NCBI RefSeq assembly: GCF_006345805.1
Contig: NC_042999.1
Span: forward strand, 82,274,001 to 82,338,000
Direction: 5' to 3'
Source of the DNA: Octopus sinensis
Lineage: Eukaryota
Length of the DNA stretch: 64,000 nucleotides
The translations under genes and the position numbers were made by a program. Of the stretch, positions 3,073 to 53,898 are shown piece by piece. The notes below the pieces were generated by a model. That model worked only from the letters and a program-made list of their open reading frames with translations. It was not told where the DNA came from and did not search any database. Positions within the stretch are counted from its first letter, which is position 1. Each line of letters opens with the position of its first letter.

Positions 3073-3320
3073 GAAACCTCACAGCTTATTTTGCTGGATA
3101 TGATGGAAAGTGTCCGCTGTCCACAACCAGCAGAATAATGTGAAACTTGTTTACTGGTCATGCTTTAAGAACCCTGCGAAGAATTCTTGCATTTCCACGC
3201 AAAGCTGATTTTTGTAGGTGTACACTTGCAACGGTCATTTTCAGCCATGTTGGTGGTTGAGTGCTAATACTTCCAAGGGCACCAATTACTATTTGTATCA
3301 CGTCTACATTGACCACAACC
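3072..3320 (-). mobile_element. R4/Dong-type RLE LINE 3' end fragment
   Basis: Manual translation VIQIVIGALGS..LQKSALRGNARILRRVLKA* parallels VIPVAIGAL..LQKAALLGIAFVLRKVL of the neighbouring element; ends in (AAT)n. Confidence 0.8.
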
Positions 3321-3392
3321 TTCGTATTTTCCACTTTAAATCGTCGTAGTTGTTTATTTTACTTCTTCTTTCACATTATCGTTATTATTATC

Positions 3393-3466
<74 letters not shown>

Positions 3467-3468
<2 letters not shown>

Positions 3469-6400
3469 CTTCGTAACACAGAGTAGGTAAAAATGCCTCG
3501 GGGTCTTTAGTCATCAGTCAAGTCACAAGAAGGAAATCAGACAGATAATACTTTCCTTAAGACGAACGCTATGCCCAATAACGCAGCTTTTTGCAAGACA
3601 TCAATCTTGCATGTGATTTCCAATTGCCTTAAAAAGTTTTCAAGTTTCAATGCGATTGAGACCAACGCTCCGATCGCCACTGGTATCACTTTTACATTAC
3701 CCTCTTGCATTCCATACAGTCTTGTCATTTCCAGTTTTAATTTGGAGTACTTGGTGATTTTTTAAACCTCTTTACTCACAACATTCATGTCATTTGGTAT
3801 GGCTCCATCAATGATTTGACAGTATTTGTCTCTCTTATTCAATATGACATAATCGGCTGACGGTGTTCGATTACACGATCCGTCTGAAAATCATTGTCGC
3901 AGAGCATCATTACTCTTCCATCCTCCTGCATAACTTTACGTGGTACATGCTCATACCATTTCTGTGTTACTTTATATTAATATTTACGGCATAAGAGCCA
4001 ATGAAGATATACACACACACTTTATGGTGGTAGCGCTTGCTTGTACTCTTTTTGTGCAAGGCTCTCACATCCACTTACCATGTGAGTCGCACTTTCCACA
4101 CTCTTTCCACAGTCTGCATTTTTGGGTGTCAGAAGATTTAAACATGTTATACTTCACTGAATTGGTAGCGAGAGCCTGGTCTTCAGCAGCAATGATCAAG
4201 CTTTCGGTGGTACGCTTCAAATCACATCGCTCAAGCTATGCTCACGGTACTGTATTATCCTTAACGTTTTGTGTATTCCTTTGAAACTATCCATGCATTC
4301 TCATTTCAAGAAGGTCTTCTTTTCTCTTCGCCTCAGCTCTTTGGTTAAACTTTTCGTTGCACATCATTTCATCTGCATTTATACCCCTATCTATCGCGGC
4401 AGGTCTTCATCAGTATTTATCAAATACTCGGTAAGCGTTCTTCTTTCACTCCTTATACAATGTTCTATACTAATTAGTCCCCTGCCACCATTCTGTCTTT
4501 TCATATATAGTCTGTTTATGTTTGCTTTGGGGTGTAGCGCCCCATGCAGCGTTCTCAACTTTCTCGTTCTTCTATCGAATGTTGATATTTCCTCTTTTGT
4601 CCATTTGAGTATGTACCTACTATATCTGACTACTGCAAATACCTAGCTATTCTTTGTGGTAATCAAATTTTCTGCATTCAGGTTGGATTTCAACACTATC
4701 TTCACCCTTTCTTGATAAGCCTCGCTGACATTGACTTTCATTTCTCTGTATAGAATGCCCTCCAGCTCCAAAATCCCTAAATATCTAGGCCCACTACCGT
4801 CGGATTCACCCATGGTCTCTCCTAATGTTAACCGTAATCCTCTGTAGGATACTTTATTCCCTCTTTTCATATTAAGTACTGAGCATTTGGTAATCCCAAA
4901 TTCCATGCCGATGTCCCTCCCACACTTCTGGGCTGTTTTGGTTAAGGAATCTATCTGTTTTTCAGATTTCCCAAACAATTTCAGGTCATCCATAAACAGA
5001 AGACGGTTCAATGATGGGCTTTTCTTTCCACATCGGCAACCCATCTTAACTTTCCTAAATGTCATTTTTATGGGTATTACTGCAAATACAAAAAGTAACT
5101 GAGAAAACGAGTCACCTTAGAAGATTTCCCTTTTAATATTAACTTCTCCAAGGAATACATTACTTGAGTACAATTTGGTTTTCCACTCTTTCATGCTATG
5201 CATCAGAAAATTGGTGGTGTTGTCAGCAACACCAATCATCTGCGGGCATTCAACGATGCAAGAATGAGGCACCATATCACATGCCTTCTTAAAGTCATGT
5301 TGGTATGATGTTTTTTACAATACCTCAAATCTGTTTTTTCGATGATCAAGAACTCTTACTACATCCTTTTTGTTCCCTTGGTAGTATTTTTTACTGTGCC
5401 ATGAAAGAGTATGACTTTGCCGCACTTCTTCCATTGTCTTCCAGATTATGTTTAGGCATGTTATGGGGCGGTAGTTTCCTACAATATTCCCCTTTCTTCT
5501 ATCTTTCATTACAAGTATAGTCCTCCTAGTCACCCTCAACGCGGGGACACACTCATTCAATTAGGCTGCTAGTCCTTCATACACCACGTGGCATCTCTTG
5601 AGCCAGAAGCCATGAATATCATCTGGTCTGGGTGCTTTCCAGTTAAGCACTTTACCCACTTGTTCTTTCACATCACCCGTGTTTATGACAATATTCTTTT
5701 GTTTCTTTTCTCCTCGTAATTCTCTGTTGATAGTTCCTATCCACATTGCATCCCCTTCATGCACCTCATTGTTTCCCCATAATCCGCTCCAGAACTCCTT
5801 GGATTTAACTGCATCAGGGTCAACATTTTCCCTATTGTCTCCTCCTAACGTTTGGAAGAATTGCTTCTTGTTATTTTTGAACAATCTGCTCTCCTCGAAC
5901 TCCTTTTTCTTTTCACAAATTTGATCTTCTGGCTTTTTGCCATGGTCCTCTGTTTTAACTGCTCTATTACTGCATCACACACGTTCTTTCATATTTTATA
6001 TTTCTTTTCTTCTCTAATTTTTCTCGGTCGGTCTTTTTCCCATTTTCCCAGTATCCTCTTACCATTGCTCAATTTTTCCTAGATCTTGCCTTGCCCCCAT
6101 TATGTCCCTTTCAATGCGTCGTGTCCACCATGGTTCGTTTGCTCCACCATATTTTGTTCTCTTAAGTTGTAACTTCTCTTCAACAAGTAGCGCAATACTC
6201 GGAGAAGATTTCTTGTTTGTCTTATGTCTTGGATGTATGGTATGACAGTATTATTCTTTTGCGCTACTTTATTTATCATATTCCTATCTACCCTTTTCGT
6301 ATTCATGGGGATTTTTCCTTCTGGATCATTCATCAAGTCGGTGAGTCATCTTTGAATTTCAAGCAACTCATTATCTAGTTGATTCATTCCCCTGCATTTC

Positions 6401-10598: not shown

Positions 10599-10722
10599 GG
10601 GTATATAGTGTAGTGCTTAAGAGCGCGGGCTACTAACCCCAAGATTCCGAGTTCGATTCCAGGCAGTGACCTGAATAATAATAATAATAATAATGATAAT
10701 AATAATAATAATAATAATAATA

Positions 10723-10753
<31 letters not shown>

Positions 10754-10925
10754 TATAATGATGATGATGATGATAACATCGAAAAACACCTTAAGGATAA
10801 GTATGCAGGTTCGAAATTTCTCCATAACACCTGATGAAGGCTGGAGGGTATATCAGCCGATACGTTGTGTTAACAACAAACAAGATGAAAACAAATATCC
10901 GTCAAATGTAAATAATGTAAATATT
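10599..10925 (+). mobile_element. tRNA-headed, microsatellite-bodied, hammerhead-bearing element (solo Penelope pLTR or SINE-like copy)
   Basis: 73-nt tRNA-like head 10599-10671 (B box GAGTTCGATTCC), (AAT)n(GAT)n 10674-10773, hammerhead 10825-10872; homologous to 49121-49394. Confidence 0.85.
10825..10872 (+). ncRNA. Minimal type I hammerhead ribozyme motif (GAAA mutated to GATA)
   Basis: TAACAC-CTGATGA-A-GGCTG(10 nt)CAGCC-GATA-CG-TT-GTGTTA; stem I TAACAC/GTGTTA, stem II GGCTG/CAGCC. Confidence 0.8.
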
Positions 10926-11315
10926 ATAAATAATGTATTTTGATGTTTGTCTAAAAAAAGCGAGATTATAACGGGGATAAAATAATGAAAGCAATATATA
11001 CTAAGGGAGCACTATTATACAAAGAAATAATCAGATGCAAAATATAAAAATGATTAGAATTGGTACTCAAATGTGAAACTATCATCAAGTGAGTTGCAGA
11101 AAACCGCCCGTAGGGCAGTCTTTCTGCTTGTATATGTAAACATAAGATCCAAGGATCGAGTGGTAGGAAGAATGTTAGCTTCAAGCAATCGTAGTAAATA
11201 TCAAAAACAACTTTCAAGGACAACATATACAAACACGCATGCACACATGTGTGAGTAGTGTGTATTGTGTTGGTGTGTGCTCTGTATGCATATTGCCTTT
11301 ATATATGTATACATA

Positions 11316-12075
11316 CAGGGTATGTAAGGTATTTGGGGACATACCTTTTTTAGGTCATTATTGCATTTTTGCAAACTCTGTATAATCATTGTTTCAGAAA
11401 ATAATAATGGCAGACACTCAGCTTGCTCTAGAAATGAAGAGGCATGCAGTTATTGTAGTTTTAAAGGCTGAGCATAGCGATTTAGAATTATCTCGATTTC
11501 TAAAAGTTGCCAGATCTTTCGTCTACAAAATTTGTAAGGAGCTAGAGACTGAAGATAGAAACGTATCACCAGTATTAAAGCATAAAAAGCATTCTAAACG
11601 CTCTGAAATTATCAGAAACTTTGAATTTATCCAGCAAGTTCAACAGACCATTCATTACAACCCCAAAAAGTATAAGAAGGAACACTAAGAAATGTTGTCC
11701 ACGAAGACATCAGATATAAATCTTATATGATGGGGAAAGGCCAGTTTGTCAGGAAAGGCAAAAGAATATCATTACATCAGATCTAAAAGGCTCTTAAAGA
11801 ACTGAAGAAACTGAAAACTCCAGCAGATTTGATTTGGTTTTACTCAAATGAGAAAAACTTCGACCAAGATCAAAGTTTAACAGAAGAAATGACAGATGGT
11901 GATGTGCAGATCCTTCTGAAGTTCCAAATGTTATGCATACAAAATTTCCTGAAACTCTTATGGTTGTCAGCAATGAAGGACATGTGATGCCTCCTTACTT
12001 CTTTCCACAATGCCTTAGAGTTAACTCTGTCGCCTACGTTGAGGTCCTGGAAATAACTGTGAAGACCTGGATAGA
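11316..12075 (+). mobile_element. Tc1/mariner (maT/DD37D-like) transposon: left end plus decayed transposase, 3'-truncated
   Basis: TA-CAGGGT terminus; HTH region MKRHAVIVVLKAEHSDLELSRFLKVARSFVYK; WFYSNEKNFDQDQ and MHTKFPETLMVVSNEGHVMPPYFFPQ. Confidence 0.88.
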
Positions 12076-12079
12076 TATA

Positions 12080-12395
12080 TGTAACTATTCCTTGAGATCA
12101 AGAAACTCTGAGTGAAGACGTAAGCCAAAGTGTTTTAAAAATATATGACACTAATACACATACACTCACACATGCACACACGCACACGCAAACACACACA
12201 CATACACACAGCTGTGCACATGCATACACGCGTGCACATGTTGACATACATAAATTATACACATATCGTTATGTGTATTATACACATGCGTGTGCGTGTG
12301 TGTGTGAGTGTGTGTGTATTAGTTTCATATATATTTTTAAAACACTTTGGCTTACGTCTTCACTCAGAGTTTCTCGATCTCAATCAATAGTTACA
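12080..12395. repeat. Inverted repeat (fold-back) with ~110 bp arms
   Basis: GTAACTATT..GAGATC..GAAACTCTGAGTGAAGACGTAAGCCAAAGTGTTTTAAAAATATAT is reverse-complemented at ~12325-12394 and continues into CA/TG tracts. Confidence 0.95.
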
Positions 12396-13395: not shown

Positions 13396-13481
13396 TTTCG
13401 GCTGATTTACTCTCCAGCCTTCATCAGGTGTCTTGGTAGAATTTCGAACCCAACCCTGGGTTCTCATTCCTAAGGTATTTT
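13396..13481 (-). mobile_element. Fragment of the same pLTR family with an intact hammerhead core, truncated just after GAAA
   Basis: Minus: GACAC-CTGATGA-A-GGCTG-GAGAGTAAAT-CAGCC-GAAA; upstream AAATACCTTAGGAATGAGAACCCAGG matches the 10785-10815 region. Confidence 0.85.
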
Positions 13482-24308: not shown

Positions 24309-24518
24309 CCAAAATGACATAGTAGTAGGGAGTGAGAGAAAGAGTAGTATAAGTAAAGGGAGAGGAGAGAAAATAGTAATTCAGTGAAGGAGAAGTAGTG
24401 AGAGTAATAGCCGTGACTGAGAGAGAGTGAGAGAAAGTAATAGCAATGAGAGTGAAAGTAATTGCTGTGATACGAACACAGTTTAGGAGTGTATTTATAT
24501 ATATTTTTGTCATCATGT

Positions 24519-24549
<31 letters not shown>

Positions 24550-25125
24550 AATACATATATAGGTATATGTATGTATATGTATATATATGTACATATATAT
24601 GTATGTATGGATATATATATATATATGAATAATTTACAAAATAAGGGCAAAAACAATATTCTAATGCTAAATATGCCGATAAAAAGACAAAATTATCAAT
24701 AACGTCTCGAAACAAACCGATAGAAATTTCTTAAAAATCTGTTATTACCGTATTGGTCCCAATTTCGGGGTTAATTCATAAAAATGTTCCCCTCTTCAGC
24801 GATAAATACGTGAGATATAAGTGAAATACTTACGTATTTATCGCTGAAGAGGGGAAAATTCTTATGAATTAACCCCGAAATTGGGACCAATACGGTAATA
24901 ACAGATTTTAAAGAAATTTCTATCGGATTGTTTCGAGACGCATAAATTATAATGGTTATTGACAATTTTGTCGTTTTATCGGCATATTTGGCATTAGAAT
25001 GTTGCTTTTGCCCTTATTTTGTAAATTATTTATAAATTTAACCTTTAAAGGTATTTTTTGATATGCTGGCCATTGATAAAAATTTTTTCACGAAAAAAAT
25101 TTTATCCTACATTAGTTATATATAT

Positions 25126-25158
<33 letters not shown>

Positions 25159-25372
25159 TTGTCCAAAATGACATAGTAGTAGGGAGTGAGAGAAAGAGTA
25201 GTATAAGTAAAGGGAGAGGAGAGAAAATAGTAATTCAGTGAAGGAGAAGTAGTGAGAGTAATAGCCGTGACTGAGAGAGAGTGAGAGAAAGTAATAGCAA
25301 TGAGAGTGAAAGTAATTGCTGTGATACGAACACAGTTTAGGAGTGTATTTATATATATTTTTGTCATCATGT

Positions 25373-25403
<31 letters not shown>

Positions 25404-25969
25404 AATACATATATAGGTATATGTATGTATATGTATATATATGTACATATATATGTATGTATGGATATATATATATATATGAATAATTTACAAACTAAGG
25501 GCAAAAACAATATTCTAATGCTAAATATGCCGATAAAAAGACAAAATTGTCAATAACGTCTCGAAACAAACCGATAGAAATTTCTTAAAAATCTGTTATT
25601 ACCGTATTGGTCCCAATTTCGGGGTTAATTCATAAAAATGTTCCCCTCTTCAGCGATAAATACGTGAGATATAAGTGAAATACTTACGTATTTATCGCTG
25701 AAGAGGGGAAAATTCTTATGAATTAACCCCGAAATTGGGACCAATACGGTAATAACAGATTTTAAAGAAATTTCTATCGGATTGTTTCGAGACGCATAAA
25801 TTATAATGGTTATTGACAATTTTGTCGTTTTATCGGCATATTTGGCATTAGAATGTTGCTTTTGCCCTTATTTTGTAAATTATTTATAAATTTAACCTTT
25901 AAAGGTATTTTTTGATATGCTGGCCATTGATAAAAATTTTTTCACGAAAAAAATTTTATCCTACATTAG

Positions 25970-26358: not shown

Positions 26359-26411
<53 letters not shown>

Positions 26412-26613
26412 TAATAATAATAATAATGATAATAAGAATAACAATAATAATAAGAAGAAGAAGGAGTAGAAGAAGAAGAAGAAGAAGAAGAAGAAGGAGA
26501 AGAAGAGAAGAAGAAGAAGAAGAAGAAGAAGGAGGAGGAGGAGAAGAAGGAGAAGAAGGAGAAGAAGAAGGAGAAGAAGAAGAAGAAGAAGAAGAAGAAG
26601 AAGAAGAAGAAGA
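26359..26613. repeat. Compound (AAT)n-(AAG/GAG)n microsatellite
   Basis: Direct reading. Confidence 0.97.
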
Positions 26614-35229: not shown

Positions 35230-35395
35230 TCTTATATTTGTTTCAATCATTTGACTGCAGCCATTGCTTTGTAAGCGTAGTACTTATTCTATCGGACTCT
35301 TTTGTCGAACTGCTAAGTTACGGGGATGTAAGCACACCAACATTCGTTGTCAAGCGATGATAGAGGCACAAACACAGATACAAACATATGCATAT
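35230..35395 (-). mobile_element. SINE family B, 3' half
   Basis: TTTCAATCATTTGACTGCAGCCAT..TACTTATTCTATCGG..GCTAAGTTACGGGGA. Confidence 0.85.
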
Positions 35396-36182: not shown

Positions 36183-36265
<83 letters not shown>

Positions 36266-36271
36266 CACATA

Positions 36272-36307
<36 letters not shown>

Positions 36308-36351
36308 TGTATCGTACATACATATATATACATGCATACACACGTACGTGC

Positions 36352-36411
<60 letters not shown>

Positions 36412-36494
36412 ATAGATAGATAGAAAGATAGAGAGATAGATAGATAGATACATACATACATACATACATACATACATACATACATACATACATA

Positions 36495-37748
36495 CAGGGG
36501 CTGGACAAAATAATAGAAACACCTTAAAATTTCAAACCAATTATTTTTAAAATATGGGTTAGGACCGCCATTGGCAGTAATTACAGCTTGAATTCTACGA
36601 TGTATGGACTCGTACAAAGTTTGACATGTCTCCAAAGGAATTTTTGTCCATTCTTCAGCTAAAACAGTCTCCAGTTCTTCTAGTGATGATGTTGGTGGAT
36701 ATCGACTCCTTACTTGTTTTTCTAAAATGCACCATAAATGTTCAATAATACAGAGATCTGGGAACTGTGGTGGCCAGATAGGATGTTCAACTTCACAAGG
36801 ATGTTCCTCGTGCCACTCAGTAATAACTTTAGTTGTGTGATTTGGTGCATTATCTTTCTGAAAGATTGCGTTTCCATCCGGAAATAATTCCGCAACCATA
36901 GGATGAATTTGATTAGATAAAATGCTTAAATAGTCTTCGCTATTAATTCTGCCATGAAGGGAAACCATTGGGCTGGCATATTTCCAAGATATAGCCTCCC
37001 CCCCCCCATCATCACAGATCCTCCTCCATGTTTAACAGTCGGAAGAAGGTAGTCTAGGTCAAATGCTTCTTTTGGCTGTCTCCACACGTATACTCGGCCG
37101 GTGGTCGGAAATAAGATAAAGGATGACTCATCCGAGAACATAACATTCTTTCACTGTTCTAGGGACCAATTCTATAGGTTTTTACTCCACTCCAAACGCT
37201 TTGCAACATTTGCTTTTGAAAGTACTATTTTCTGATTGCAGTCCTCCCATAAAATCCGGCTTTTGTGCAGCTCCCAGTGAACAGTTTTTCTGAAAAGTTG
37301 GTTCTCGAAGTGGTGATTAAGCTCTGCAATAATTTTGGGAGATGTACTTTTGTGATCCTTTCTAACAATTCACGTAAGAAAGTTTTGGTTATCTTCCGGA
37401 GTTTTATTTCGACAAGGAGGTTTTTCCCTCTTTCTCAAAGACTGTCATTACTTTCGAGGCAGTACTTCTTGATACACCAAACATTTCGGCTGTTTTCGAT
37501 ACAAACAATTTGACCTCTTTGAAAGTCCGATAGATCTGTCATTTTAATGAATTTTAATTACCTTTTTCTGGTGACATCTGAAAAGAAACAGCAATTTTAG
37601 CAAAACATATTAAGCAACATTAATAATAATAAATCAAATACTAATAAATCAAAAACATTAAAATAAAGAAGTTTTTGACGGTTTTATAGATACTTCCAAA
37701 TTATGATCTTATGATGCTAAGAGTTTCAATTATTTTGTCCAACCCCTG
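36495..37748 (-). mobile_element. Tc1-like (DD34E-type) DNA transposon with both TIRs and TA TSD; transposase frameshifted and internally deleted
   Basis: TA-CAGGGGCTGGACAAAATAATAGAAAC..GTTTCAATTATTTTGTCCAACCCCTG-TA; motifs FSDES, TVKHGGGSVM, FQKDNAP, WPPQFPDLCIIEHLW. Confidence 0.96.
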
Positions 37749-42129: not shown

Positions 42130-42537
42130 CGCAGGAGTGGCTGCGTGGTAAGTAGCTTGCTTACCAACCACATGGTTTCAGGTTCAGTCACACTCCGTGG
42201 CACCTTGGCCAAGTGTCTTCTCCTATAGCCTCGGGCCGATCAAAGCCTTATGAGTGGATCTGGTAGATGGAAAGTGAAAGAAGCCCGTCGTATATATTAT
42301 GTGTGTGTGTTTGTGTGTCTGTGTTTGTCCCCCCACCTTCAACAACGCTTGACATCCGATGCTGGTGTGTTTACATCCCCGTAACTTAGCGGTTCGGCAA
42401 AAAGAGACCGATAGAATAAGTACTAGGCTTACAAAGAATAAGTCCTGGAAATCGATTTGCTCGACTGAACAGTGGTGCTTCAGCATGGCCGCAGTCAAAT
42501 GACTGAAACAAGTAAAAGAATAATAGAATAAAAGAAT
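42127..42537 (+). mobile_element. SINE family B, full length
   Basis: GGCGCAGGAGTGGCTGCGTGGTAAG (A box), AGGTTCAGTC (B box), internal (TA)(TG) tract, LINE-like tail ending TAAAAGAA repeats. Confidence 0.93.
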
Positions 42538-43046: not shown

Positions 43047-43375
43047 GTGAAGGCGCATGGTTCAGTGGTTAGAGCGTCGAGCTTACGATCGCGAGGTTGT
43101 GAGTTTGATTCCCGGACCGGGCTGCTTGTTATGTTCTTGAGCAAGACACTTATTTCACGTTGCTCTAGTTAACTCAGCTGTAGAAATAAGTTGCGACATC
43201 ACTGGTGCCAAGCTGTATTTGCCTTTCTTTTGGATAACATCAGTGGTGTGGAGGGGGAGGCTGCTATGCATGGGCGACTGCTGGCCTTCCATAAACAATC
43301 TTGCCCGGACTTGTACCTCGGAGGGTAACTTTCTAAGTGCAATCCTATGGTCATTCATGACAGAAGGGGTTCTCC
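43047..43375 (+). mobile_element. tRNA-derived SINE with family C head and a different 3' half
   Basis: GTGAAGGCGCATGGTTCAGTGGTTAGAGCG..GAGTTTGATTCCCGGACCGGG..TTCTTGAGCAAGACACTT. Confidence 0.88.
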
Positions 43376-44558: not shown

Positions 44559-44994
44559 GCGCAGGCGTGTCTGTGTGGTGAGAAACTTACTTCCCAATCA
44601 CATGGTTCCAGGTTCAATCCCACTGCGTAGCACTTTGGGCAACTGTCTTCTATTAAGGCCTCGGGCCGACCAAAACCCTTGTGAGTGGATTTGGTAGGCG
44701 GAAACTGAAAGAATCCCGTCGTATATATATATGTGTATGTGTGTGTGTATGAATTATGTATCTATTATGTATGTATTTGTGTGTCTGTGTCTGTCCCCAC
44801 CACCATCGCTTGACGAGTGATGTTGGTGTATTTACGTCCCTGTAACTTAGCAGTTCGGTAAAAAAGACCGATAGAATAAGTACTACGCTTACAAAAAATA
44901 AGTCCTGGGGTTCATTTCTTCGACTAAAGACAGTGCTCCAACATGGCCGCAGTCAAATGATTGAAACAAGTAAAAGAATAAAAGAAATAAAAGA

Positions 44995-48964: not shown

Positions 48965-49120
48965 TAATTCTGTTACTTCTTTCAGTCGTTTTACTGTGGA
49001 CATGCTGGAGCACAGCATCTAGTCAAACAAATCGACCCCAGGACTTTATAAGACTAGTATTTTTTCTACCGGTCTCTTTTGCCGAACCGCTAAGTTACAT
49101 TTACACACACCATCGGTTGA
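48965..49120 (-). mobile_element. SINE family B 3' half, truncated at the Penelope boundary
   Basis: CATGCTGGAGCAC..ATCGACCCCAGGAC..TTTTGCCGAACCGCTAAGTTAC. Confidence 0.85.
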
Positions 49121-49236
49121 GTTCTATATTTGAGAGATGAAGAATCCTCATCTTGTTTGTTGTTAATACAACGTTTCGGCTGATATACTCTCCAGCCTTC
49201 ATGAGGTGTCCTGGGCAAATTTTTCCGATGTTGTTG

Positions 49237-49317
<81 letters not shown>

Positions 49318-49545
49318 TTTAGGTCACTGCTGAGAATCGAATTCGGGATCTTGGTGTTAGTAGCTCGCGCTCTTCACCACTATGCCATACGCCCGTGAGC
49401 AATTATGGAGTGAATTTTAGGGCTCATAAATTTAATATCTTTATATCCTTCCTTAATACCGGTTCCTATATGCTACTCATATCTGCACAAGGTCTGCCTG
49501 TGGGGGTTATTATGACGTAGCATATGTGCTGCTTCTTTATAATCA
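49121..49545 (-). mobile_element. Inverted pLTR of the Penelope element: endonuclease C-terminus + tRNA-like head (49394-49322) + microsatellite + hammerhead (49210-49164)
   Basis: Minus translation KEAAHMLRHNN..RPCADMSSI*EPVLRK; GGGCGTATGGCATAGTGG..GAATTCGATTC; GACAC-CTCATGA-A-GGCTG..CAGCC-GAAA-CG-TT-GTATT. Confidence 0.85.
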
Positions 49546-50435
49546 GTCAATTAGGAGGAAAGTCAACATCGTACGTGAAGAATTCCATCCACTTCACAGA
49601 ATTGATCAAGGATACCCACATTGGATCCAACCAGAAGGTGAGTCTAGATGTGATAAGTCTGTTCACCAAAGTCCCAACTGATGAAGCACTATCGGTAATT
49701 CAAGAAAAATTGGTGACGGATACCTGTCTAAAATGACACACCAGGAAACTAGATGGAAATGCTGACCTTCTGTGTAGAAACTACCCACTTCAGAATGGTT
49801 ATATATCGACAAGAAAAGGGTTTAGCTATGTGTTCGCCATTATCACCGATAATAGCCAATATATACATGGAATACTTTGAGAATTTAGTTTTAGGATCAA
49901 CACCACTAAAACCAACCCTCTGGGAGCGATATGTTGATGACACCATTATACTCTCGCCCCACCAGGAAGCTGTCCAAGTACTCAATAAAGTCATCCATGC
50001 AGCTCACAATGGAAAAAGAAAAAGACAATCATATGGAATTCCTGGACGTATTAATATCACGCAACCAAGTATGAATCCATGACATCCGTATACCGCAAGC
50101 AAAACTTCACTGAACGATAGCTAAACTTCAGTCTCCACCATCCATACAGTATAAAGAGAGGGATTGCTCTGTACCCAAAACATCCAGCAAAGAATTTAGG
50201 TAGCGATCCTGATACAAACCACGAAAAAATGATCAAGCTGAGTTACAATCTATTAAGCAACAACAACCCCAAAAACATGCTATCCACTACAATTAGGAAG
50301 AAAAGGGAGGATGAAACCTAAACTGACCCCAGTGTGCCTACCCTATGTGAAAGGCCTCTCAAAAAAGATAGAAAAGCTATGCAGCCCATATGACATCAGG
50401 ACAGTTTTCAAGAGTAAGACAAACTTCTCAAATAT
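49546..50435 (+). mobile_element. Penelope/Poseidon-type reverse transcriptase, decayed, truncated at both ends
   Basis: SYVKNSIHF, VSLDVISLFTKVP, YRQEKGLAMCSPLSPIIANIYMEYFE, WERYVDD, VCLPYVKGLS..DIRTVFKS. Confidence 0.93.
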
Positions 50436-50828
50436 CTCTAAAAAAATAGCACTCTTGGGGACGATTTGTTCGAGTACAACCGTTGAATTGCGTACACCAC
50501 TAGTGAGTACATCAAGTAAAAACTATAGTGTGTGTACATACGTAGATACATACATAAGTAGTAGTAGTAGTAGTAGTAGTAGTAACTGCTGTCGTTGGTG
50601 GTGGTGCTGGTAGTGGAGGTGATGGTCGTTATGGTGATGGTGGTGGTAGTGGCGGTGGCGGCGGCGGTGACAGCGGTCAAGGAGGTGACCGTGGTGGCTG
50701 TCTTATTGGCAGCATTGGTGGGTTTGATTTTTCGACAAGATAAATTAGTCTAGAATCGAAACAGATATTTGACTCCATTATGAATTGCATTTCAATCTTC
50801 ACACACACACACGCGCATACATACGCAC

Positions 50829-51456: not shown

Positions 51457-51850
51457 TTATTTTATTTGTTTCAGTCATTTGACTGCGGCCATGCTAGAGC
51501 ACCACCTTTAGTCGAGCAAATTGGCTCCAGGACTTATTCTTTGTAAGCCTAGTACTTATTCTATCGGTCCCTTTGCCGAACCACTAAGTGACGGCGGCGT
51601 AAACACACTAGCGTCGGTTGTCAAGCGATGTTGGAGGGGGACAAACACAGATACACAAACATATACATATACACACACACACAGACACATATATATATAT
51701 ACATATATACGACAGGCTTTTTACAGTTTCCGTCTACCAAATCTACTCAGAAGGCTTTGGTCGACCCGAGGCTATTGTAGAAGACACTTGCCCAAGATGC
51801 CACGCAGTGGGACTGAACCCGGAACCATGTGGTTGGTAATCAAGCTACTT
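51457..51850 (-). mobile_element. SINE family B whose head is split by a 2 kb insertion; remainder at 53899-53931
   Basis: Colinear with 42127-42537 up to AAGCTACTT; the missing ACCACACAGCCACTCCT is found at 53915-53931. Confidence 0.92.
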
Positions 51851-53898
51851 TATTTCATAAGATTTGCCACTAGGGCAGTACAAAGAGTAGCTGCGGGCTG
51901 GACAAAACACATTAATGAATGATGGTGATGGATGAAGATGGTGATGGGAGAAAACGATAGCGCCCGCCGACTTTCGCTTCTCTAAGACATTGTTCTTTTT
52001 TTCAAATTTTGACAAAAATTCAATAAATTATTACAAATTTTAAAAGAGGCAATAAACCTCTTTTTCAGTATAATACAAAATGTTCAATAGGCCTATGTAA
52101 CCCGGCCGCCCGTCGCTCTTGCCTCACCGAGGCAATAATCGCTGGTCAGGTCGTGGTCCAAAGGTATAATTTGGAATGAGTCCATCGGGAAGGAACCCAC
52201 GATCCTGCCTAGATTACCCCTCCGCATGACCTCCGCAGCCAGCTGCGAAGGCCACCCGGGGTCCTCCGTGCAGGACCTAAGTCCCTCCCAATGTCCTCCC
52301 TTTCTCGTTTTACGCACTGTATTTTCCACTGTTCCTCCTTTGAAAAAGAGGAGCACACATTTCTCCACAAATTGTCCCTCAGGCGGCACACCCGCCCGAG
52401 AAGACTTGGGAGACGCCGTCTGCGTATCACAATCCGCCGGCGGCGTTCCGCTTCTCTTTTTTTTCTTCTTTTTGCCTTGGGCCACGGGAGGTTGAGGTTC
52501 CGGAGTTGCACACACCGAGTTCTCTTCTCCTGCAGTTTCCAGGTCTTTTGGTGGGTCGCCATTGCTCCCCACTTTTCTTTTTCTTTTGGAGGAAGTCTTT
52601 GCTTCCTCACTCTGTTTCTCTCCCTCCATTGGGGGGGAGCAGGGAGAGGCTCCGATATCAACTGCTCCAGGATCCTACTTTGGTCCCTGGGGCAGTTCTT
52701 CTTATTGTGGTCGGTCTCCAGACACAGGTGACACTTGGGGGGGGCGTCCCTCAAGCAACACCGGATACCTGTACCCGGCCATCCTCAGAAAGTCCGGCAA
52801 GACCAGACTTTTGGTTGATTGGGTCCATAGGGTCAAAGTGGCCTTTGACCCCTCCCAATCAGCCGCAGGCTGTATTTTCACATTTAGGAGCTTGGCGCTG
52901 CTACCACCCAGACCCCGGCGGATAGAGTCCTCTATCCACTCGGGTTCAATGCCGGGTGGTAGGCCGCAGATCCACGCTCTCAACAATTTTTCTCCCTTGT
53001 AGTTAGGGAGAAACAAAATCTCCTTGCCCTCAATGGGCTTGCTTGCAAAGTCGCAAGCTGCTTTAGGGGAGTAAAACAGCAACCAAACCGTTGCGTATTT
53101 GACTCCCCGTGCAATGTATTTAACGGCTGGCATATGGTCTGCCAGCTCGTTAATGATAGTTGCCTTTGGAAAGACAGCTATGGTGTTGAGTGACTTTGAA
53201 TAAGTCCTCAACACCACGGTCTTGTCCTCTAGCTCCTTCAAGTATTTTTTGGGAGGTGCTAGGTCCCACACAATAAGTTCCTTTGCCATTTTGTAACGGA
53301 ATCCAATAAAAGTTCAACAGGTGTAATAAAATAAATACGATAGACAGAGTGAGAAGAGAAAACACAACAGAAGAGAAGAATTACAATAAAAATGACAGTT
53401 CAAAAAGAGTTCTTTTTTAAATAAAAGATAGCTGGAAGGAAGAGAGTTCAAATTTGGCAAAGGAATTAATTTTTTGGCCGAAAAGTACTCCTGGCCAAAC
53501 GTCCAAAACAGTCCTTGGTTACTCTTGGTGCTTCTTGGTAAATCCAAAAAAACAGTCCTTGAATATCCTTGGTGCTTCTTGGTAAATCCAATTTGAATTA
53601 ATTTTTGAGGAGGGGCTACGCCTCCTCAAAAAACACAATTCTCACTGCAAAGTGGGTCTTTATACCCGACAACAGGCAGGAAAAAATACCTGGAGCAAAG
53701 TGAAGTTTATTACCTGCTAAAAAATATTAATGCTAAATAACATTAAATGCTAAAAACATTAAAAGCAAGCAATAAACCTCACTAAGCTCTTAAAAATATA
53801 AAACGCCTACCTGTCGTCGAGTCAAAAAGTTCAACAAAAGTTCAATAATTCACGTAGCAGCACGTGACATTTGGAGCAGCCAAAAAAACACGTCTGTC
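51851..53898 (-). mobile_element. ORF1-only non-LTR retroelement (L1/Tx1-like, HAL1-type architecture), 2048 bp, 16-17 bp TSD
   Basis: TSD TGGTAATCAAGCTACTT (51834-51850) / TGGTAAGAAGCTACTT (53899-53914); ~610 bp 5' UTR, single ORF, ~240 bp 3' UTR ending in AATAAA. Confidence 0.85.
52093..53289 (-). pseudogene. Gag-like ORF1 protein (~398 aa if two compensating homopolymer frameshifts are corrected) with a CCHC zinc knuckle
   Basis: ORFs 53289-52702, 52754-52209 and 52629-52093 join at G8 (52737-52744) and G7 (52631-52637); CHLCLETDHNKKNC = CX2CX4HX4C. Confidence 0.82.

Follow-up and report, generated by a model that had tools for sequence, protein, structure and literature searches.

Is a short, non-coding repeat made of a tRNA-like head, a trinucleotide microsatellite and a hammerhead motif a SINE in its own right, or the detached end of a larger mobile element? 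The question is raised by positions 10599-10925 of a 64,000-nucleotide stretch of Octopus sinensis DNA (the window), which has about 34% GC and is very rich in microsatellites and decayed mobile elements. The first-pass annotation took this unit, together with a related cassette at 49 kb, for a SINE that RNA polymerase III (Pol III) transcribes and that is retroposed by the machinery of a Penelope-like element (PLE). Other short repeats in the window look like what we take to be octopus SINEs. The unit and its copies comprise the following features.

10599-10671, plus strand: tRNA-like head, 73 nt, recognized by its geometry and by weak matches
10674-10774, plus strand: internal microsatellite, (AAT)~29 then (GAT)5; the corresponding slot at 49 kb is 49236-49317
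10775-10825, plus strand: linker from microsatellite to hammerhead, common to the 13-kb copy and 29 nt shorter in the 49-kb copy
10826-10871, plus strand: putative minimal type I hammerhead, from inspection and the folding centroid, with a predicted cut after 10866
10872-10925, plus strand: putative Penelope tail and likely start of the next ORF (ATG 10885); the 3' end is approximate, 10890-10937
13396-13481, minus strand: third copy, linker and hammerhead, from blastn and inspection
49148-49394, minus strand: second full cassette, made up of the head (49394-49322), a microsatellite, a short linker, a hammerhead and a tail, which may reach about 49121

Reading from 10599 to 10925, the order is a 73-nt head, the microsatellite (AAT)~29(GAT)5, a 51-nt linker, the hammerhead and an A-rich tail. 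Within the window (blastn), the head at 10611-10672 has a single further match, 49382-49321 (85%, E 2e-15), and the hammerhead and tail have two, 49222-49148 (89%, E 6e-24) and 13450-13398 (87%, E 4e-13); no head without a hammerhead was found. Apart from its shorter linker and its other microsatellite motif mix, the 49-kb copy matches the 10.6-kb copy in the order of its parts and in their junctions. No RT-like match was found near 10.6 kb, and the claim that the same cassette occurs there without a reverse transcriptase is upheld. The two heads are identical at 59 of 73 positions in an alignment counted from 10599/49394, the first 18 nt being the most diverged part (12/18 identical vs 47/55 for the remainder). 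The third copy consists of linker and hammerhead only (13481-13396, minus strand) and is cut at both ends: its truncation at 13396 had been annotated correctly, to which must be added that it also lacks head and microsatellite, with a 5' end near 13481. All three window copies are monomers, with no tandem units of the kind that characterizes retrozymes. Directly after the cut hammerhead, 13399-13311 (minus strand) is possibly a piece of another PLE family, unranked by profile and without a Pfam match; its frame resembles what we assume to be the R-I-K-E-A motif near the end of the Penelope endonuclease.

The ends of the 10.6-kb unit lack two marks of a tRNA-derived SINE. No target-site duplication (TSD) of at least 7 bp was found, as the flanks of 10599-10925 share no word of that length, and a terminal simple-repeat or poly(A) tail is absent, the microsatellite being internal instead. 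Homology of the tail with the 49-kb copy stops at 10888; positions 10889-10925 resemble by eye the tail and ORF start of a related metagenome contig (L001, below), and their similarity to the 49-kb copy is not significant (159/600). At the other end, the annotated start of homology at about the first base of the head stands, and this copy begins at about the tRNA +1. The weak similarity proposed for some 20 nt further upstream does not stand: the anchored score was reached by 257 of 600 random window stretches, and the local score against the 49-kb copy was equalled by 583 of 3000.

The 49-kb locus provides the anatomical context for these sequences. There, on the same strand, the sequence extends another 145 nt upstream of the head and reaches the final codons of an ORF encoding a reverse transcriptase (RT) and a GIY-YIG endonuclease, and the cassette is thus not bounded at 49394, as had been annotated, but continues to about 49540.

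49395-49423, minus strand: 29-nt 3' UTR spacer from the ORF stop to the tRNA-like +1, from translation; it recurs in public contigs
49424-49540, minus strand: decayed C-terminus of a Penelope RT-GIY-YIG ORF, with one frameshift and one premature stop; stop codon 49426-49424
49538-50457, plus strand: decayed Penelope-type RT fragment, cut at both ends (RVT_1, E 1.7e-6, Pfam)

A frameshift-aware profile of C-termini, built from 37 of 150 homologous proteins and run on both window strands, gave its best match on the minus strand ending at 49448, with a score of 56.9 and the next at 31.8; none of 40 shuffled windows reached that score (shuffle maximum 44.4). HMMER applied to six frames of the window returned two domains alone at iE < 10, which are the collinear halves 49538-49509 and 49495-49445 (minus strand) of this C-terminus, individually weak at iE 0.55 and 0.89. 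The adjoining RT fragment is of the PLE type, with its RVT_1 match and with homologues in which RT is followed by a CSC..H..H endonuclease; the window itself lacks the endonuclease core, and the Pfam GIY-YIG model matches one homologue weakly (E 0.017). RT homology begins at 49538-49539, the exact end of the inverted arm, so that arm and 5'-truncated RT abut head-to-head, flush at 49538-49541, and contig pieces begin at 49538. No intact element was recovered, and the assignment of RT and inverted arm to one family rests on this flush junction together with protein similarity.

These observations indicate that the cassette repeat lies directly behind the C-terminus of an RT-GIY-YIG ORF. As the ORF end precedes the head at 49 kb and the arms abut head-to-head, head, microsatellite and hammerhead are read here as the 3' UTR, or pseudo-LTR (pLTR), of a protein-coding Penelope family. 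The 49-kb cassette itself is read as the inverted repeat of a truncated Penelope copy in the usual inverted-pLTR layout. The continuity with the Penelope ORF end bears out the proposal that the unit is pLTR-derived and Penelope-linked; it argues against a separate SINE by anatomy, since the head lies internal to the coding element's 3' UTR. The 49-kb Penelope copy also appears to interrupt another abundant short repeat family at about 49120. Members of that family lie at 49061-49120, 51460-51830, 42363-42419, 44841-44879 and 35284-35321, and further A/B-box pairs at 43058 (plus strand) and 394 (minus strand) are maybe its heads.

Public sequencing data extend this picture beyond a single locus. 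Part of 49320-50460 is contained in 20 of the 24 listed runs, none of which contains half of it. All contigs of four runs (four studies, three organism labels) were aligned, and in each run 3,075-3,970 of them fall along head, spacer, ORF end and RT. One contig among those listed bridges 49334-49495 across the head +1, and the loose ends at 49438 and 49497 lead further into the same element. From these alignments the family is an abundant one, and since the contigs cover both parts and bridge the +1, head and ORF end are continuous beyond the 49-kb locus. Joints linking the inverted arm with other places in the RT were seen at 49416-49891 (three of the four runs), 49431-50137 (one) and 49472-49588 (one); with short sides at 80% likeness, they give a weak indication of further inverted copies.

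This continuity bears on the idea of chance nesting, in which a separate tRNA-(AAT)n SINE would at each locus have happened to insert next to a hammerhead fragment of Penelope origin. A head with a simple repeat is a complete simple SINE on its own, and PLEs favour AT-rich and microsatellite targets (PMC11167929; the available text of PMC8557442). Both full copies nevertheless share order and junctions, every head in the window is accompanied by a hammerhead, and the head is continuous with the ORF end both at 49 kb and in public contigs, which largely refutes chance nesting and leaves it very improbable.

Homologous proteins bear on the clade of the element. The window RT fragment retrieved first 31 and then 132 of them, found via the RT at 49753-50001 and up to 61% identical over 293 aa (P0109); many continue through the CSC..H..H endonuclease to a conserved C-terminus. 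By inspection, and following the criterion in the part of PMC8557442 available, the homologues are without a CX2-5CxxC finger before GIY-YIG. The family is likely to be of the Penelope/Poseidon type. In six of 150 homologous predicted proteins the N-terminus is a related hammerhead region read antisense, which joins RT/EN at differing points; five of the six match 10797-10892 (E 2e-5 to 2e-3), and the antisense peptides reach 10892. These fusion proteins are best read as inverted pLTRs in a sister family.

Among 15 distant metagenome loci, none has a tRNA or DNA similarity to the cassette, and a hammerhead occurs in L001 alone; no related loci were found in viral or genome contigs. L001 is 44% identical to P0109, and its ORF end at 1739 is followed by a 350-nt UTR, a minimal hammerhead at 2089, a tail and the next ORF. 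By eye, 10872-10925 can be aligned with this tail and ORF start; the UTR of L001 has no A/B-box pair, tRNA or microsatellite. With this one informative relative among the 15 loci, the tRNA/microsatellite module looks like a family-specific gain. L001:1740-2190 is in itself a clean tandem Penelope junction, in which the hammerhead has an 8-bp stem II.

The evidence for a tRNA origin of the head comes from several directions. In tRNA position numbering, counted from 10599 as read from the sequence, C32-T33, A37-A38 and G53-T54-T55-C56-A58-C61 fall on tRNA positions; an A-box-like element with one mismatch lies at 10606-10616, an anticodon-loop-like CTACTAA at 10630-10636 and the B box GTTCGATTCC at 10651-10660. 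The B box is perfect in the 10.6-kb copy and the A box in the 49-kb copy, with a spacing of 45 nt in both full copies. Pairing is partial in the anticodon and T stems and absent from the acceptor stem. In a blastn comparison of the head with 50,697 phage records, all three matches fell on annotated tRNA genes (E 0.05-2). Other searches were negative: ARAGORN called no tRNA at the head, Rfam gave neither tRNA nor hammerhead at E <= 10 for the cassette (across the whole window, the 150 rows listed of its 211 were microsatellite noise), the head folds no better than shuffles, an exact-pattern scan for it in metagenome contigs gave 0 matches, and a protein search with the antisense frame across it was without any match. 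Geometry, A/B boxes and weak tRNA-gene matches together lend moderate support, and the head is likely to be tRNA-derived.

The hammerhead was judged by inspection against the minimal motif described in the available text of PMC4209133, and has no Rfam match. Stem I (10826-10830/10867-10871) encloses CUGAUGA at 10831-10837, a bulged A at 10838, stem II (10839-10843/10854-10858), GAUA at 10859-10862 as a lesion of GAAA, and a palindromic CG. The centroid fold displays stems I and II of 10826-10871 (z -1.5). The fit to the minimal type I motif thus extends over a 5-bp stem I, CUGANGA, a bulged base, a G-C opening stem II, GAAA, the palindromic CG and the lack of a helix III. Each copy has one lesion, as the first-pass annotation had claimed: GATA at 10859-10862, CTCATGA at 49205-49199 (CUCAUGA in the 49-kb hammerhead) and the cut after GAAA at 13396. 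The cassette is accordingly assigned, on its sequence, a minimal type I hammerhead with predicted cleavage; the 10.6-kb copy, with U at A14 of the core, probably no longer cleaves. According to the part of PMC4209133 available, minimal hammerheads work weakly and solely as dimers, and most are dispersed single motifs, probably from truncated elements. An exact-pattern scan for the hammerhead in viral contigs gave 0 matches. The ATG inside CUGAUGA was considered as an ORF start, as in Anolis Poseidon, and rejected: among 296 homologues, none has such a peptide at its start, the antisense peptides of the sister family imply CUGAAGA, and the L001 ORF begins about 60 nt later.

Each full copy carries one microsatellite at a fixed slot, which differs in motif mix as had been reported, with (AAT)~29(GAT)5 at 10.6 kb and, at 49 kb, AAT(ACT)~16(AAT)10(AAC)4 when read on the sense strand. 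It may have been inherited from a master copy and then have drifted by slippage. The proposal that the family seeds trinucleotide microsatellites holds in so far as each copy carries one; beyond that, just two of the nine trinucleotide-type arrays whose flanks were inspected belong to it. The cassette family is one microsatellite source among several in the window. Another source of AAT arrays is provided by (TAA)n-ending LINE remnants: decayed LINE sequence at about 3400-6000 (minus strand) and from 26600 onward ends at or near the (TAA)n arrays 3382-3467 and 26359-26453, and we take these remnants to carry RT and restriction-like endonuclease motifs.

Further repeats fill the surroundings. 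Examples are a long, MITE-like inverted repeat enclosing CA/TG microsatellites (12080-12160 and 12310-12390), presumed Tc1/mariner-like transposase remnants at 11410-12080 (plus strand) and 36261-37031 (minus strand), and a tandem duplication of about 854 bp at about 24500-25900 with an internal inverted repeat in each unit (both-strand matches 24799/24844 and 25653/25698). GC-rich, ORF1-like frames at 52093-53313 (minus strand), with a zinc-knuckle-like CxxC..H..C motif, are probably a LINE 5' part.

How, then, did the solo unit arise? The explanation that we favour, with modest confidence, is that 10599-10925 is a solo pLTR plus tail of the coding Penelope family, made by the family's own RT-endonuclease, which would have started in the tail and stopped early near the head. 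A tRNA retrocopy, or a simple tRNA-(AAT)n SINE, may have inserted just behind the stop codon and then been kept. Reverse transcription would begin internally in the tail, as in Anolis Poseidon, and copying would proceed from there across hammerhead, linker, microsatellite and head and on into the ORF end, halting at some point on the way; the 5' ends of the three window copies do differ, lying in the linker, at the head +1 and in the ORF end respectively. In Anolis Poseidon, the protein nicks AT-rich DNA and reverse transcription starts inside the RNA about 111-118 nt into the ORF; these internal start sites define the optional tail, and hammerhead cleavage is unneeded in vitro (PMC11167929). 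Two points speak against early stopping. A 5' end that coincides with the +1 is rare under random truncation (a rough estimate is 5% for one of three copies), and an intact A box (49 kb) and B box (10.6 kb) survive, with no T4 run before 10938.

The same points are those expected if Pol III initiates at the head within the pLTR and reads to the tail, with the Penelope protein acting in trans to copy the short transcripts into a SINE-like subfamily starting at +1. This would be compatible with the pLTR anatomy, as an added route rather than a separate element. The 5' boundary of the 10.6-kb copy lies at the +1 within a few bases, the A and B boxes have tRNA spacing with one or other intact in each copy, and no T4 run occurs within the unit, which is not unusual for this length. 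In addition, a PLE RT starts internally, so that a defined 3' end is unnecessary (PMC11167929), pLTR sequence was enough for mobilization in trans according to the available text of PMC3846280, and Sm-alpha offers a precedent (PMC6765202, in the part available). Against this, just one of the three window copies starts at +1, the other two beginning elsewhere; A/B-box pairs alone are not above chance in 64 kb (the shuffled-window mean is about 1); and no TSD of at least 7 bp was found. Contigs bridge the +1, no pile-up of begins or ends is reported, and none of the 24 listed of 1,512 loose ends lies at 49394-49395, in a table that is insensitive to a +1 subpopulation with diverse flanks, as a contig that has a unique flank and contains little of the head would hardly be aligned or listed. 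Contig depth just upstream of the +1 exceeds that inside the head in all four runs, the opposite of what a dominant +1 SINE would give, and this was not counted because depth is unfit for ranking parts, the head sits at the margin of the stretch compared, and the window copy has diverged. On balance, a Pol III origin of the solo unit seems a possibility of the lesser kind, clearly behind early stopping.

The solo unit could also be the remnant of a longer Penelope insertion after recombination or deletion, in which case its 5' end would be uninformative on transcription or reverse transcription. Solo pLTRs without TSD have been attributed to such events in the available text of PMC3846280, and there is no TSD of at least 7 bp here; divergence is highest over the first 18 nt of the head, and the 13-kb copy is cut at both ends. 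No Penelope remnant was found upstream of 10599, however, and recombination between pLTRs should leave the ORF end too, if that is part of the repeat. We regard this origin as improbable, and retain the early stop of the family's own RT-endonuclease as the preferred account.

Comparison with known systems places most of the cassette within the biology of PLEs that carry the endonuclease (EN+). As in EN+ Penelope/Poseidon elements, RT is followed by a C-terminal GIY-YIG domain and the putative tail would overlap the ORF start (PMC11167929; available parts of PMC4209133 and PMC3846280); the hammerhead has a bulged nucleotide after A9, G-C as first pair of stem II and a palindromic 15.2-16.2; and a truncated copy bears a head-to-head inverted pLTR, with a solo pLTR lacking a TSD elsewhere. 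The available text of PMC3846280 describes head-to-head inverted pLTRs, tails with the first 12-22 ORF codons and solo pLTRs without TSD, and the optional tail of EN+ PLEs is 30-40 nt. Unlike described EN+ PLEs, the cassette pLTR carries a trinucleotide microsatellite in its interior, together with a 73-nt tRNA-like module with A/B boxes, located 29 nt behind the stop codon. The one dissected PLE promoter is LINE-like (PMC2377424), and described PLE promoters are of the Pol II type (PMC2377424, PMC3846280), as far as the available text of these papers extends. The open-access papers searched yielded no account of a coding PLE with a tRNA-like module in its pLTR; PMC6962438, PMC4758252 and PMC10886601 contributed nothing further here.

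Other likenesses lie among short elements. Schistosoma Sm-alpha/Sj-alpha combine a tRNA-derived head and a type I hammerhead in a short dispersed repeat, and Pol III transcription has been proposed for them (available parts of PMC2770079 and PMC6765202). Compared by description, Sm-alpha has a canonical hammerhead, is often tandem and has no coding partner shown in the text available, whereas the cassette has a minimal hammerhead and physically forms the 3' end of a coding PLE. Animal non-LTR retrozymes (PMC7229834, PMC7761336, bioRxiv 10.64898/2026.07.22.740005) and non-autonomous Chlamys such as MRC1 (PMC8557442) are likewise short, non-coding, pLTR-related units thought to be moved by PLEs, and solo monomers are common among them, according to the available parts of these sources; non-autonomous PLEs are reported in those of PMC8557442 and bioRxiv 10.1101/596502. 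Retrozymes are there described as tandem arrays with circular RNA and are said to lack promoters, unlike the cassette, a monomer with a promoter-shaped head. The TRIMp3 elements Cassandra, Helenus and Ajax (PMC10886601, in part) similarly hold a small-RNA-derived Pol III module in a terminal repeat; these are non-autonomous LTR elements, unlike the cassette as the pLTR of a coding Penelope family. The first-pass statement that known SINE partners are LINEs, not PLEs, was overstated, since PLEs have been proposed as mobilizers of SINE-like hammerhead elements (available text of PMC7761336 and bioRxiv 10.64898/2026.07.22.740005), and Sm-alpha is already a tRNA-derived hammerhead SINE (PMC2770079 and PMC6765202, in part). 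In a recent annotation of octopus repeats, 893 SINE families are recorded as recently active and unclassified, beside 30 Penelope families, with hammerheads unmentioned in the part of its main text available (PMC13282606).

The locus has consequences for annotation and for the biology of the family. De novo pipelines would file such units as unclassified SINEs or tRNA pseudogenes, though they are Penelope ends. In TRIMp3 elements, we assume, the tRNA lies within the LTR. The relation between SINE-like hammerhead elements and PLEs has been proposed but is rarely visible in one locus; at 49 kb, tRNA-like head, microsatellite and hammerhead lie 29 nt behind the stop codon of a coding family. The cassette therefore makes the question of whether a PLE can be Pol III-transcribed and yield a SINE directly testable. 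If 5' ends prove scattered, the unit would be a truncated copy of the ordinary kind, from a family whose 3' UTR is unusual. It is a tentative idea, and we would not expect it to prevail, that a coding Penelope family captured a tRNA-type Pol III promoter in its pLTR and thereby sheds its own SINE of head, microsatellite and hammerhead; if true, this SINE would have a physically identifiable PLE parent, would supply a missing link to elements of the Sm-alpha type, and would be one source from which trinucleotide microsatellites arise.
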